Assembly (NCBI GenBank): GCA_964415965.1
Contig: CAYQCK010000003.1
Location: 131,426 to 166,074, forward strand
Direction of reading: 5' to 3'
DNA from: an uncultured Gammaproteobacteria bacterium
GTDB lineage: Bacteria > Patescibacteriota > Patescibacteriia > 2-12-FULL-60-25
Length of the DNA: 34,649 nucleotides
Part shown: positions 16,727 through 32,690 of the stretch, piece by piece
Position numbering within the stretch: position 1 is the first letter of the stretch
Layout of the letters: every line of letters starts with the position of its first letter
The notes under the pieces: generated by a model
What the model saw: only the letters and a program-made list of their open reading frames with translations
Told to the model about the DNA's origin: nothing
Databases searched by the model: none
Made by a program: the position numbers and the translations under genes

Positions 16727-16870
16727 CCCCACTTCGCAAGTGACCCCGGGGGTCTGGGGGTCCGCGCCAAGCGTGGTGGCAGGATAACTAACGTCGGCGA
16801 CACCGAGAGCGGCATCGCGGACCCCCAGGACTTTTGCTACTTTTGGTCACAAAAGTAGATAGGAGGGCTT
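16727..16870 (+). repeat. copy A of the conserved structured element (core only; lacks the 5' GGATTCCAGC...GCTGGAATGAC module)
   Basis: CACTTCGCAAGTGAC...GGGGGTCCGCG...GACACCGAGAGCGGCATCGCGGACCCCC...CTACTTTTGGTCACAAAAGTAGATAGGAGGGCTTT. Its 3' end overlaps the stop codon of the convergent HD gene. Confidence 0.85.
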
Positions 16871-17785
16871 TCACTCTCTGATCATCGCCTTGGTCAGCTC
16901 TTCTTCCGAAGATTCAAGCACCGCGATGACGCGTCGATAGTCTTCTTTGGACTTGTCAGGCAAATCTTTCTGTCCGTCCACGATTTTCCGCAGTTGCGCG
17001 ATGGCGCCGGCGTGATCCAGCCCGCCGCGGCCACGGAACGCCTGGTACTTGTCGATGACGGCCAAAACCCCGTACCTCTCCATGAGTTCCAGGACCTTTG
17101 AACCGGGATGGATATCATCCAAGGGCACACGGGCCGGGTTCCGTCCCTCCAGGATGTGGTGCGTCGCGGCGATGACGACGACTTCGTCGTCTATCGCCCC
17201 GCCGCGGTTGCGCTGCAGCACTTCATACGTCCAGTCGGCATGGTCGCGCCAGAACTCCAACATCGGTTTGGTCTCGACATCCACGCCCAGCTCCTGGGCC
17301 AGCACCGACCTGATGCCGACGGGATCCCGCGTTTCCGTCTCACGCATGAACTCGGCGACCGTCTTCGGGACCGGCTTGCCGCCGACCGTCCTGAACGGAT
17401 TGAACGGCATCTTGGGCGTGGCGAACAGCGTCTTGATGGCCGCCCGCAAGGCTGGCGACTTGGTTTCCGGACCAGACTTCCCGATGTCGTGCAGCAGGGC
17501 GCAAAGCATCAGCTTTTCACGCGTCATGCCCCGGATGTCGAGCTTGGGCCAGATTGCCCCGACCATCCGCGCCATGCAGATCGCGTCCTCCAGGTGTTCC
17601 CCCGTCTCGATTAGGCGTTCCCGCAACTCCGGACGTTCCTCCAGCCTGAAGTCCAACCCCAGCTTGGCGACCTGCTCCAATACGCGTTGCCTGGCGGCTT
17701 CCTCCGGAGGCGTTTCGGACGGCATGGGCATTCTCGGTTCAGGCATACTTGGGCTATAGGATAGCCGTCCCAGGGCATTTGGCAA
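16871..17785 (-). CDS. HD-domain phosphohydrolase
   Basis: LLHDIGK, the HD motif, with further conserved His/Asp (ATHHILEG). Confidence 0.65.
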   Translation of the reverse strand: MPNALGRLSYSPSMPEPRMPMPSETPPEEAARQRVLEQVAKLGLDFRLEERPELRERLIETGEHLEDAICMARMVGAIWPKLDIRGMTREKLMLCALLHDIGKSGPETKSPALRAAIKTLFATPKMPFNPFRTVGGKPVPKTVAEFMRETETRDPVGIRSVLAQELGVDVETKPMLEFWRDHADWTYEVLQRNRGGAIDDEVVVIAATHHILEGRNPARVPLDDIHPGSKVLELMERYGVLAVIDKYQAFRGRGGLDHAGAIAQLRKIVDGQKDLPDKSKEDYRRVIAVLESSEEELTKAMIRE

Positions 17786-17791
17786 ATCCCG

Positions 17792-18163
17792 TTAACCAGT
17801 CAGGGCCCGCAGGGCCTCTTCCGTGCTGCCGACGAAAAACGTTTGGCCGCCCCGGTTGCTTTCGCGGATCAGCGCCTGCAGGCTCTCGCTTTGATAGCCC
17901 GAGAAGTCGCCCACGATAGCCAACTGGACGTGATACGTGACGGACTTCTGCAGGATCTCGCCGGCTAAGCCAGTGCGCAGATCGAAAAAATCCGGATTGA
18001 TGTTATCCGCGTGCAGGATGATCTTCTTGGGCGACTGGACGGCGGGATGCGCCATCAGGTCCAAGGCATCGCCGGCCGTCCGGATGACGATGCCGTCCGC
18101 CAAGACCTCCGCGACCTTCTGCCCATCGTATTCATGCGTTTTGATTTCCATGCCGGGAAGCAT
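17792..18163 (-). CDS. DUF4180-like small protein (123 aa)
   Basis: ORF 6 nt downstream of the HD gene on the same strand. Composition is protein-like; family assignment is from memory of the DUF4180 pattern. Confidence 0.4.
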   Translation of the reverse strand: MLPGMEIKTHEYDGQKVAEVLADGIVIRTAGDALDLMAHPAVQSPKKIILHADNINPDFFDLRTGLAGEILQKSVTYHVQLAIVGDFSGYQSESLQALIRESNRGGQTFFVGSTEEALRALTG

Positions 18164-18197
18164 AGCACAAAACCCGGGTATTGCCCGGGTTTTGTGC

Positions 18198-18287
18198 TGG
18201 CGGAGAGGGAGGGATTCGAACCCTCGGTAACCTTGCGGCTACACCAGATTTCGAGTCTGGCTCATTCGACCACTCTGACACCTCTCC
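18198..18287 (-). tRNA. tRNA-Ser (anticodon CGA), class II, CCA encoded
   Basis: Reverse complement reads GGAGAGGUGUCAGAGUGGUCGAAUGAGCCAGACUCGAAAUCUGGUGUAGCCGCAAGGUUACCGAGGGUUCGAAUCCCUCCCUCUCCGCCA. Acceptor GGAGAGG/CCUCUCC, anticodon loop CUCGAAA. Confidence 0.9.
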
Positions 18288-18486
18288 ATGCTCGGCCTTG
18301 CGACCTTCGTTCCGTTCACGCCTGCTGGCGCTCACCGCACTTCCGGTCGGGGCCTGCGCTCCCCATTCGCCCGCTGGCGAACGAGGGCCCCACCACATCG
18401 GATGCGCGGACAGCGTAACCGATTGAGGCTTGACGGTCAACCCGGGGCATTGTAAGGCGCCGGATTATTCCTTAATCTATGGATAT

Positions 18487-31494: not shown

Positions 31495-31495
31495 T

Positions 31496-32368
31496 TTACA
31501 CTTTCGACAGCTTTTTAACGAGTGCCCGCGCTTCTTGGCGCATATCCGGTCTGTTCAGGGCGATTTCCAGGTTGGCCTTCAACCAGCCGATCTTGGAGCC
31601 GGTGTCGTAATACGTCCCTTCGACAAGCTTGGCGTACACCGGACGCTTCTTCATGAGCCCAAAGATGGCGTCCAGCAGGACCAGCTCCCCGCCATGCCCC
31701 TTCTTGGTCTTTTCGATGGCCTCGAAGATGTCCGGCGTCAGGACATAGGCCCCGAGCGAGGCCAAGCGCGACGGCGCCTTGTCCGGTCCCGGTTTCTCGA
31801 CCACTCCTTTGAGCTGGTACACGCCTTTTTCGACCTCGGCCGCCGGGTCGATGATGCCGTAACGCTTCGTGTCCTCATCCCCCACCTTGGTGGTGAACAG
31901 CACCGGATCCCGGTATTTCTCGAACACCTCGATCATCTGCTTGAGCCGTGGCTTCTTGCTGACCATGAAATCGTCGCCGAACAGCACGGCGAACGGTTCG
32001 TCGCCGATGACTTCCCTGGCGTTCAGCACCGGGGTGGCGTTGCCGTACGGCCCTTTCTGGCGGATATAGATGAAATTCGCCATGTGCCCGATGGCCCGGA
32101 TCTCCTCGAGCTGCTCCTTTTTGCCCGTGGCCTTAAGCCAGGCCTCAAGCGTCTGGTTGTCGTCGAAATGGTCCTCGACCGCCCGTTTGCTGATATTCGT
32201 GACCAAGATGATGTCCGTGATGCCCGAGGCGACCGCCTCCTCGACCACGTATTGGATGACCGGCTTGTCGATGACCGGCAGCATCTCTTTGGGCATGGCT
32301 TTGGTCGCCGGCAAGAACCGCGTCCCGAATCCCGCCACCGGGATGACCGCTTTGCGTACTTTTTGCAT
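31496..32368 (-). CDS. galU: UTP--glucose-1-phosphate uridylyltransferase
   Basis: KAVIPVAGFGTRFLPATKAMPKEMLPVIDKPVIQYVVEEA is the canonical GalU N-terminus; 290 aa. Confidence 0.9.
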   Translation of the reverse strand: MQKVRKAVIPVAGFGTRFLPATKAMPKEMLPVIDKPVIQYVVEEAVASGITDIILVTNISKRAVEDHFDDNQTLEAWLKATGKKEQLEEIRAIGHMANFIYIRQKGPYGNATPVLNAREVIGDEPFAVLFGDDFMVSKKPRLKQMIEVFEKYRDPVLFTTKVGDEDTKRYGIIDPAAEVEKGVYQLKGVVEKPGPDKAPSRLASLGAYVLTPDIFEAIEKTKKGHGGELVLLDAIFGLMKKRPVYAKLVEGTYYDTGSKIGWLKANLEIALNRPDMRQEARALVKKLSKV

Positions 32369-32428
32369 ATACCTGGATTATACCCGTCCCGAAGGCAGAT
32401 AAAAAAGACCGCCGATTTTTGCCGGCGG

Positions 32429-32643
32429 ATGGATTCCGGGGGATTTTGCCCGGCCCCAAACCGGGGCTGGAATGACGGGTTGGGTTATCGGACAAAAAAG
32501 CCCCACTTCGCAAGTGACAAGGGGGGGGTCCGGGGGGCCGCGTGGCGTGGCGCACAGAATCTCTAACGTCAGCGACACCGAGAGCGCATAGCGGACCCCC
32601 GGAGCTTTTGCTACTTTTGGCTACAAAAGTAGATAGAAGGTTT
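32429..32643 (+). repeat. copy G of the conserved structured element (most divergent copy)
   Basis: ATGGATTCCGGGGG...CCGGGGCTGGAATGAC...CACTTCGCAAGTGAC...GACACCGAGAGCGCATAGCGGACCCCC...CTACTTTTGGCTACAAAAGTAGATAGAAGGTTT. Confidence 0.8.
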
Positions 32644-32663
32644 AAAATATTTAGGACGCGGCC

Positions 32664-32690
32664 GTGGATTCCAGCTTCCGCTGGAATGAC
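32664..32690 (+). repeat. isolated 5' module (H) of the element family
   Basis: GTGGATTCCAGC-ttcc-GCTGGAATGAC with no core following. Confidence 0.6.

Follow-up and report, generated by a model that had tools for sequence, protein, structure and literature searches.

What kind of element recurs, always in one orientation, between the genes of a 34,649-nt stretch of chromosome from an uncultured patescibacterium (contig CAYQCK010000003.1, positions 131,426 to 166,074; hereafter the window), a gene for a structured RNA or a mosaic of repeats? A sequence-only reading of this DNA had proposed a single structured RNA in multiple copies. We find that the five intergenic patches concerned, all within 16 kb, are a mosaic of two separable modules. 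Module 2 (M2) is best described as a new, lineage-restricted, structured unit of 145 bp, and module 1 (M1) as a known kind of repetitive extragenic palindromic (REP) sequence, so described because of its tag, stem and tail. The composite has the look of a new family of intergenic mosaic repeats; it is not a proven new RNA gene. We give a probability of about one half to the reading that it is a non-autonomous, REP-associated mosaic repeat of the same nature as the neisserial intergenic mosaic elements (NIMEs), the bacterial interspersed mosaic elements (BIMEs), the Rickettsia palindromic elements (RPEs) and MITEPpu9, co-transcribed into the 3′ untranslated regions (UTRs) of its neighbours. The repeats themselves are confirmed and the RNA interpretation is partly supported.

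Two modules in five intergenic patches

The window contains seven M2 units of ~145 nt and seven M1 hairpins, every one in the + orientation, which together form ~1.5 kb of structured repeat within 16 kb (Table 1). A covariance model of M2 built from the seven window copies recovered exactly these seven as full-length + matches in the window (153–180 bits, E 1e-38 to 1e-45), with nothing further above noise. Direct-repeat families D1–D4, D6 and D8 join 16718–16901, 19095–19331, 21145–21550, 25014–25458 and 32427–32691, and the motif GGAATGAC occurs five times, always on +, against 1.2 occurrences expected. Because the seven copies occupy just five independent loci, one shared orientation would arise by chance with a probability of ~1/16.

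All eight elements of the sequence-only reading are present on +, at or within a few bases of where it placed them, and every conserved block that it quoted was found. Its count of seven copies plus an isolated module stands, with corrections of detail: copy A is M2 only, H is M1 only, and a further hairpin (H2) follows H. The blocks had been taken as the ordered parts of one RNA; instead they belong to modules that also occur apart, with M2 lacking M1 in copy A and in three copies from other genomes (L129, L136 and L147), and M1 lacking M2 in H. The arrangements are M1-spacer-M2 (B), M1-M2-M1-M2 (C/D and E/F) and M1-M2-M1-REP (G/H/H2). In B, D and F a GT-rich spacer separates M1 from M2, its G-tracts recurring at a period of ~9 nt (for example GGGTTAGTT GGGTCGGTT GGGTT); it might form G-quadruplex-like structures or serve as a protein-binding iteron. 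The spacers of C and E are purine-rich and unrelated to it.

A CGTC-tagged palindrome in module 1

Read on +, module 1 is GGATTCCAGC-[loop]-GCTGGAATGAC, the stem which the sequence-only reading had called P1 and assigned to an RNA. On the opposite strand the same letters read YGTC-ATTCCAGC-NNNN-GCTGGAAT-CCA, the layout of a CGTC/TGTC-tagged REP palindrome of the superfamily defined by Di Nocera et al. 2013 (PMC3733652). Members of this superfamily carry a terminal CGTC (often TGTC), an unpaired CCA tail and A/T at the first two stem positions; the stem is 8 bp in families 1 and 2, the loop is 4 nt in family 1, and odd loops occur in some hosts (PMC3733652). The CGTC-1 elements, an abundant family spread over the genomes of its hosts, correspond to Neisseria dRS3 and Rickettsia RPE-6 (PMC3733652).

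On the − strand of the window the tag is CGTC in F, G and H and TGTC in B, C, D and E, all seven stems begin with AT, and the tail is CCA in six of the seven (TCA in B). The 8-bp stem ATTCCAGC/GCTGGAAT is perfect in D, F and H; read on −, B has one wobble, C one mismatch, E two mismatches and G a 5-bp outer stem. Loops of four nucleotides occur in D (GAAA), E (GCAA) and H (GGAA); B, C, F and G have a nested-hairpin insert of 28–33 nt instead. D and H thus agree with CGTC-1 REPs in tag, stem, A/T start, loop and tail, with E a degenerate version. These features show module 1 to be, as judged from its sequence, a CGTC/TGTC-tagged REP palindrome of the CGTC-1 type read on the − strand, which would extend the superfamily to Patescibacteria. 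The same kind of tag stands on H2 and on hairpins beside M2 or YchF in three relatives (L142, L128 and L125), with counterparts of H2 itself in L128 and L142. A generic scan for tagged palindromic hairpins was too permissive to gauge the frequency of CGTC REPs, and only its strict M1 matches are usable.

Like CGTC-1 REPs, module 1 is found downstream of coding regions and has no linked transposase. It differs from them in the nested hairpin of four of its seven copies, in a host outside the five phyla listed in PMC3733652, and in the direct orientation of its copies, where that study describes head-to-head dimers.

Structure and conserved core of module 2

Module 2 runs from ..CCCCACTTCGCAAGTGAC.. 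to ..GTAGATAGGAGGGCTTT and has three parts: P1, a small hairpin on the 5′ side; P2, a long helix rich in GC; and P3, an A/U-rich terminal hairpin. P2 encloses a variable hairpin and an 18-nt core, GCGACACCGAGAGCGCAT. All 11 copies known agree in the first 14 nt of this core, and its sole variation is an extra base in five of them. The blocks AGCGUGG and GCGACACCGAGAGCGCAU within P2 are conserved bar one-base changes or insertions in a few copies, and the hairpin between them varies freely. Copies A, C and E form type I and copies B and F type II; copy D combines the outer parts and spacer of type II with the inner stem of type I, and copy G has two indels and a GCATAGCGG block in common with the copies of other genomes.

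Helices P2 and P3 are supported by compensatory changes, as the sequence-only reading had proposed of a conserved secondary structure. In a structural alignment of the 11 copies from four genomes (A3), which holds few independent substitution events, P2 (columns 36–49 with 100–113) has four double-changed pairs (C-G to U-A twice, G-C to A-U and C-G to U-A) and P3 has three (CUACUUUUG-GUCA-CAAAAGUAG versus UUACUUUCA-GUUA-UGAAAGUAA). Cells of P2 and P3 are paired in 96.7% of cases, compared with 39–49% when partners are slid by one to three columns, and double changes at seven pairs over two helices were equalled in 4 of 500 column shuffles. One of the two examples of compensation offered earlier (GTCCGCG/CGCGGAC versus GTCCATG/CATGGAC) is genuine, whereas the other, CACTT versus CGTTT opposite AAGTG, amounts to two G-U wobbles.

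As every double change in P2 and P3 is from one Watson-Crick pair to another, the covariation is silent on the strand and on RNA versus single-stranded DNA. Folding energy was uninformative as a means of assigning the strand, with predicted stabilities and z-scores alike for both strands and + the more stable in seven of the 11 copies. The strand-specific hints conflict. The + strand is suggested by P1, which alternates between CACUU/AAGUG and CGUUU/AAGUG (nine G-U cells and no A-C cells), and by a candidate helix P4 (GCGU with ACGU/ACGC) that uses G-U on +. The − strand is suggested by one A-C in P2 of L142 and, on direct reading, by a hairpin that the core could form in five type I copies (GCGAUGCCG-CUCU-CGGUGUCGC, with tandem G-U pairs). 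We also note that the variable hairpin is A-rich on + in copy D (21425–21445) and in L147 (8335–8352), and the core hairpin is therefore followed by a T-run on − (flagged by the terminator scan in D, 21471–21442).

At its ends module 2 has only the short complementarity AAAG...CTTT of 4–8 nt, so that the earlier statement that terminal inverted repeats (TIRs) are absent is true of long ones only. Direct reading of the junctions in the window and in the outside copies gave no consistent target-site duplication. Neither such a duplication nor the TIRs, typically of 10 bp or more, of a miniature transposable element with inverted repeats (MITE) were found.

No known family was recovered. Rfam 15 (whose families include HEARO, IS605-orfB, raiA, OLE, ROOL, GOLLD, ribozymes and riboswitches) gave no match over the elements at gathering thresholds or at E ≤ 10, single copies with lax filters included, which bears out the earlier failure to name an RNA class. 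Module 2 had no blastn match in phage and plasmid collections, and viral contigs gave chance matches only with a 15-mer and none with a two-block pattern. In a collection of genome contigs which does not hold the source genome, the strict pattern GACACCGAGAGC..CCCC..TTTTGC gave four chance matches in unrelated phyla, which had none of the other blocks and no score with the M2 model. The element does not encode a protein, as had been stated, since all six frames have stops or frameshifts between copies; a pseudo-protein search with joined six-frame translations of A, B, G and L147 gave no match at E ≤ 0.1, and a micro-reading frame (MTNHGFQL...) over module 1 is present in only three of the seven copies. 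A sponge for CsrA/RsmA was rejected (GGA motifs are not conserved across copies), as were integron attC, CRISPR or TIGR arrays (the ~145-nt unit has no spacers, there is no integrase or Cas/Tas gene, and the flanked genes have their own promoters) and self-cleaving ribozymes or riboswitches (no Rfam signal and no consistent downstream gene).

Occurrence and turnover in related genomes

Conservation outside this genome, which the sequence-only reading had made a test of its claim, was found by searching contigs of related genomes with the covariance model. A metagenome scan with a two-block pattern gave 27 loci, of which three were confirmed by the M2 model, and a fourth copy lies on contig L129, fetched through its YchF homologue. 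The four outside copies belong to three related uncultured Patescibacteria, bringing the total with the window to four genomes; L147 and L136 are on one contig of 1.36 Mb, which has at least two copies. Module 2 is specific to a narrow clade of Uhrbacteria-like Patescibacteria.

The copies on L129 and L147 fill the same intergenic slot as copy G. Module 2 is absent downstream of YchF in L128, L125, L159, L162 and L163; L128, the closest relative (96% YchF amino acid identity), keeps only the H/H2-like hairpins. Close relatives therefore differ in the presence of module 2 itself, and its copy number varies. In the part of the contig that was read, 16 kb hold seven copies, and no other copy lies in the remaining ~28 kb, which take in 7.2 kb to the right and ~1.9 kb to the left of the window. 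Copy G shares 75–76% identity with L129/L147 across module 2, compared with 56–59% at four-fold degenerate sites of YchF, and module 2 is therefore constrained or younger than the species split. Copy G is nearer still to the copies of its own genome (82–87%), despite its indels in common with other genomes, and these mixed relationships suggest gene conversion or re-insertion.

The M2 copy of L142 has, 17 nt upstream, a REP-type hairpin different from module 1. L125 (85% YchF identity), which has no module 2, carries unrelated repeat families of its own in the equivalent intergenic slots (12204–12389, 17855–18583, 20180–20404 and 20807–20934), namely TGTC-tagged palindromes (TGTCATCCTGAGCGAGCTTCGAGCGAGTCGAAGGACC) and short tandem motifs of the CTACCCTCTACC type.

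Table 1. Repeat features of the window (positions in the window) and M2 copies on contigs of related genomes (positions in the contig). The strand of M1 and H2 is that on which the REP palindrome reads.
Feature	Position	Strand	M2 model (bits)	Description
M2 copy A, type I	16727–16870	+	172.6	No M1 upstream
M1 of B	19102–19156	−		TGTC-tagged REP-type palindrome, nested-hairpin insert in loop, TCA tail
GT-rich spacer of B	19157–19186	+		G-tracts of ~9-nt period (GGGTTAGTT GGGTCGGTT GGGTTAAAG)
M2 copy B, type II	19187–19332	+	180.1	
M1 of C	21084–21135	−		TGTC tag, stem ATCCCAGC/GCTGGAAT, 28-nt insert, CCA tail
M2 copy C, type I	21153–21298	+	176.5	First of tandem C/D
M1 of D, canonical	21314–21343	−		TGTC-ATTCCAGC-GAAA-GCTGGAAT-CCA
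M2 copy D	21374–21521	+	179.2	GT-rich spacer before it, 21344–21373
M1 of E	25022–25051	−		TGTC-ATTACAGT-GCAA-GCTGGAAT-CCA, degenerate stem
M2 copy E, type I	25068–25213	+	172	First of tandem E/F
M1 of F	25229–25282	−		CGTC tag, perfect 8-bp stem, nested-hairpin insert, CCA tail
M2 copy F, type II	25313–25458	+	171.2	GT-rich spacer before it, 25283–25312
M1 of G	32429–32477	−		CGTC tag, 5-bp outer stem and nested hairpin, CCA tail
M2 copy G	32500–32643	+	153.5	Type III features common to copies of other genomes
H, solo M1, canonical	32664–32691	−		CGTC-ATTCCAGC-GGAA-GCTGGAAT-CCA
H2, second, different hairpin	32700–32735	−		CGTC-tagged, CGTCATTTCGACC...GGAGAAACCCA
M2 copy, L142	1922–2076		160	Between radA and convergent recG
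M2 copy, L147	8280–8432			Antisense to YchF, P3 hairpin 17 nt from YchF stop
M2 copy, L136	5838–5989			Sense, after stop codon of ogt-like gene, before pyrF-like gene; no P1 hairpin
M2 copy, L129	1802–1958			Antisense to YchF, P3 hairpin 3 nt from YchF stop

Gene context, promoters and terminators

The flanking genes are convergent at A, B and L142; at C/D, E/F, G, L129 and L147 they are in tandem and the element is antisense to them; L136 is in sense orientation after an ogt-like gene. All nine loci thus contain the 3′ end of a gene and none is head-to-head, which is weakly significant (chance about 0.075). Copy A begins 14 nt past a terminator-like hairpin (16693–16712) and its 3′ end abuts the stop codon of a convergent HD-domain gene (16871–16873); copy F ends 12 nt before the stop codon (25470) of a convergent 533-amino-acid gene; copy G sits between an NTP-transferase gene and YchF. 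A co-oriented downstream gene is found at L136 only (pyrF-like), that gene being convergent elsewhere, so the loci do not show the fixed position upstream of a co-oriented gene class that marks a riboswitch or cis-leader.

The promoter scan found no promoter-like site on + upstream of any window element. The − strand has two near-consensus sigma-70 promoters (21002–20974 and 24895–24867) and clear intrinsic terminators at 19378–19346, 21568–21537 and 32428–32409. The first of these terminators, with a + terminator at 19069–19086, flanks copy B, the second lies between copy D and the upstream − gene, and M1 of G follows directly after the third. On the − strand, A, E/F, G/H, L129 and L147 are bounded by a stop codon on one side and by the next terminator or promoter on the other, and at these five of the nine loci that strand would be transcribed, as 3′ UTR.

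Module 2 does not resemble an intrinsic terminator on +, where the terminator scan flagged no site at the ends of P2 or P3; a U-rich run (CUUUUGCUACUUUU) begins 3–4 nt past P2 and is itself paired in P3. On − the scan flagged internal sites in D (21471–21442, already mentioned, and 21448–21435), short hairpins of five pairs (TCGGTGTCGCCGA) within A, B and C, and a further short hairpin at the edge of C.

A REP-associated mosaic repeat or an RNA gene

A repeat element is favoured over a conventional RNA gene because there is no fixed relation to gene orientation, because module 2 has neither promoter nor terminator of its own, because solo, truncated and tandem forms exist, and because copy number and occupancy differ between close relatives. 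Equal stability on both strands is as expected for a palindromic DNA repeat. The assertion that the element is an RNA and not a MITE-like repeat is accordingly not established, given strand-neutral covariation, equal folding, the missing + promoter and the differences in presence and absence.

NIMEs offer a parallel in layout, being dRS3 repeats interleaved with RS units of 50–150 bp. Here too, REP palindromes alternate with a longer unit (M1-M2-M1-M2, M1-M2-M1) in a few clustered intergenic arrays, the organisation of both NIMEs and BIMEs, and they lie beside probable surface-protein genes and pilin-like paralogues. Module 2 is longer than the RS units and has covariation-supported helices, and the likeness is one of arrangement, with none in sequence expected. 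More broadly, the BIMEs of E. coli, the enterobacterial repetitive intergenic consensus (ERIC/RU-1) elements, the pneumococcal BOX elements and bcr1 of Bacillus cereus are modular intergenic repeats of 100–250 bp, transcribed with their neighbours, with stable stem-loops, compensatory changes and copy numbers that vary between relatives. Module 2 has no sequence similarity to them and differs in that its conserved unpaired core is unusually long and that it is known from a very narrow range of hosts. In Neisseria, CGTC-1 REPs cluster in mosaic intergenic regions, interleaved with other repeat families (PMC3733652). A precedent for an element that is both repeat and RNA gene is MITEPpu9 of Pseudomonas putida, which carries the gene of a small RNA (sRNA), ssr9, has REPs as its insertion sites, depends for its movement on an IS110 transposase acting in trans, and is found in solo and tandem copies in a few closely related genomes (PMC12288879). 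Our element is likewise a small, structured, non-autonomous unit tied to REPs, solo and tandem, in few close genomes. MITEPpu9 is flanked by boxes copied from the ends of ISPpu9, lies inside a split REP and carries a promoter of its own, and the genome encodes its cognate IS110 transposase (PMC12288879); in contrast, insertion sequence (IS)-end boxes, a split REP, an own promoter and an IS110 transposase were not found in the ~44 kb read here or at the four outside loci, and the REPs beside M2 are intact.

Mobility, transcription and an effect at the RNA level are inferred for the repeat. An enzyme encoded elsewhere may act on the composite in trans, as the IS110 transposase does on MITEPpu9, or the repeat may multiply as REPs recombine and duplications arise between them. 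Recognition by a mobilising or binding factor would account for the retention of the helices and the conserved core. Once inserted, the unit would be co-transcribed with whichever neighbouring gene reads into it, mostly on the − strand, where the transcript would place it as a 3′ UTR between stop codon and terminator, and its stable helices could serve as 3′-end barriers or insulators in either orientation, as has been proposed for REPs and BIMEs.

Several observations weigh against the REP-associated repeat. Neither the window nor 9 kb of additional contig nor the surroundings of the four outside copies gave a transposase, a recombinase or a reverse transcriptase, and no dedicated transposase is known for CGTC REPs in general (PMC3733652). 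There are no long TIRs, and no target-site duplication or clean empty site is demonstrable. The G-U wobbles in P1, P0 and candidate P4 favour an RNA of the + strand. The same slot abutting the YchF stop codon is filled in three genomes, and module 2 is better conserved between them (0.75–0.76, G versus L129/L147) than the four-fold sites of YchF (0.56–0.59); a function selected by the host would explain both at least as well.

Among the alternatives, we regard as unlikely, though the least so, that module 2 is a family of free-standing structured sRNAs on the + strand, acting in trans by binding a protein or by base-pairing with the core as seed, spread by local duplication and with the REP hairpins as mere neighbours. 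The compensatory changes back its helices, conserved single-stranded blocks beside a variable hairpin give an aptamer-like or ribonucleoprotein (RNP)-like layout, the unit is non-coding and without an Rfam family, it is more conserved than four-fold sites, and the wobbles of P1 (CGUUU with AAGUG in C, F, L147 and L129) are on + only, with P4 GCGU/ACGU changing to a G-C pair. Against it, no sigma-70-like + promoter precedes any copy, though strong − promoters are recognisable nearby; beside YchF in L129 and L147, the promoter of a divergent gene takes up the 60 nt upstream of the unit, and no terminator follows module 2. The G-U evidence probably stems from one or two ancestral events, the − strand core hairpin with tandem G-U in five type I copies points the other way, and folding energy is equal on both strands. 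There is no partner protein, P1 is missing in L136, and the closest relative lacks module 2 at a shared locus. Somewhat more doubtful again is an undescribed class of structured non-coding RNA of Uhrbacteria-like Patescibacteria, the RNA partner of a protein yet to be identified. It could be a guide or bridge-like RNA of a REP-targeting recombinase, explaining the adjacency of CGTC REPs, or it could be an RNP scaffold. It would have multiplied here around a group of genes for pilin-like and surface proteins, with the conserved core GCGACACCGAGAGCGCAU as its functional site, and a duplicated G-run (GGGGGWC, then GGGGGUCC), both parts able to pair with GGACCCCC, would be an alternative-pairing switch.

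A host-selected cis element of mRNA 3′ ends, with no mobility of its own, is a further reading, which we judge improbable. It would act as a bidirectional structural insulator or stabiliser, set between convergent genes or between stop codon and terminator, and control read-through, 3′ exonuclease decay or, where the hairpin is no more than ~15 nt from a stop codon, translation termination. The proximity to stop codons (0 nt in A, 12 nt in F, 3 nt for P3 in L129, 17 nt in L147), the position of A, E/F and G/H on − between stop codon and terminator, the presence of a gene 3′ end in nine of nine loci with no head-to-head region and the filled YchF slot all fit. However, zero head-to-head regions among nine is weakly significant (about 0.075), B and D lie beyond the canonical terminators of their upstream genes, where a 3′ UTR element would go untranscribed, and the orientation to the transcribed gene differs, being sense in L136 and L142 and antisense elsewhere; nor would a selected cis element be expected to double in tandem, to occur as solo modules or to be lost in the closest relative. 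Least probable of all, with very little weight in our view, is a relic of a single-strand-DNA transposon of the IS200/IS605 kind (a palindrome-associated transposable element, PATE), in which a Y1 HUH transposase would bind P1 and P3 as the subterminal hairpins of the left and right ends, and the interior would be the remnant of a guide-RNA scaffold. The lack of long TIRs, subterminal hairpins about 9–13 nt from each end, an ACTT...AAGT stem base that direct reading finds in both P1 and P3, and the single orientation in the window with the element strand C-rich in four of five loci, which would fit a replication-direction bias, are consistent with it, but these orientation statistics are weak (p about 0.06 and 0.19), TnpA, TnpB and IscB genes are in none of the contexts examined, Rfam gave no match to HEARO or IS605-orfB motifs, P1 is dispensable (L136) and no conserved 4–5-nt target is evident at the left junctions.

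In the tiny, streamlined genomes of Patescibacteria, 1.5 kb of structured repeat in 16 kb is unexpected, and module 2 provides a compact, covariation-supported RNA or DNA fold with a conserved core. If module 2 is mobilised beside REPs, it could help to find the enzyme or factor by which CGTC REPs are moved or maintained; if it is a trans-acting RNA, it would join a very short list of lineage-specific structured RNAs from the candidate phyla radiation.

Host and gene neighbourhood

YchF homologues place the host among Patescibacteria, near ‘Candidatus Uhrbacteria’. Flanking DNA was taken from a Joint Genome Institute metagenome contig (Ga0248168_1000578, 63.5 kb, sample 3300022666), in which the window occupies ~21677–56325; the window and its flanks (7.2 kb right, ~1.9 kb left) make up the ~44 kb of the genome that was read. 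The neighbourhood is ordinary chromosome encoding RuvB, Nramp, MurJ-like and Wzy-like proteins, two tRNAs, an HD protein, DUF4180, a solute-binding protein, the NTP-transferase, YchF, five tandem type IV secretion system (T4SS)-pilin-like paralogues and several proteins without a family. The window contains no gene for a transposase, an integrase or a reverse transcriptase, and none that is Cas-like. Right of 16.8 kb the genes are nearly all on − and the elements all on +.

The five T4SS_pilin (PF18895) paralogues form a tandem array at 27120–30043 (−) with internal DNA repeats (families D5, D7 and D9), and the same array is kept in relatives L125, L129 and L164; the repeat cluster flanks it and several fast-evolving genes without a family. 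A promoter module occurs in two copies on − (20964–21040 and 24857–24935), upstream of genes 20248–20946 and 23882–24910, whose products have no detectable relationship. It comprises TTGACA-17-TATATT, which has a TG extension, together with a conserved 5′ leader and, upstream, a GGCTCNGTTGAGC hairpin that has a T-run. A perfect 27-nt duplicate of the 5′ part of tRNA-Ala(GGC), after which the sequence no longer resembles a tRNA, lies 83 nt upstream of the genuine tRNA-Ala gene (window 34540–34612 and 34623–34649, continuing in L164:7044–7120); the fragment was not called by ARAGORN or Rfam and is possibly an integration or duplication scar. Finally, short tandem motifs of the CCAGCTACCAG type (family D10) lie in or beside the Wzy-like gene (14540–14588 and 15038–15072) and resemble the CTACC motifs of L125.

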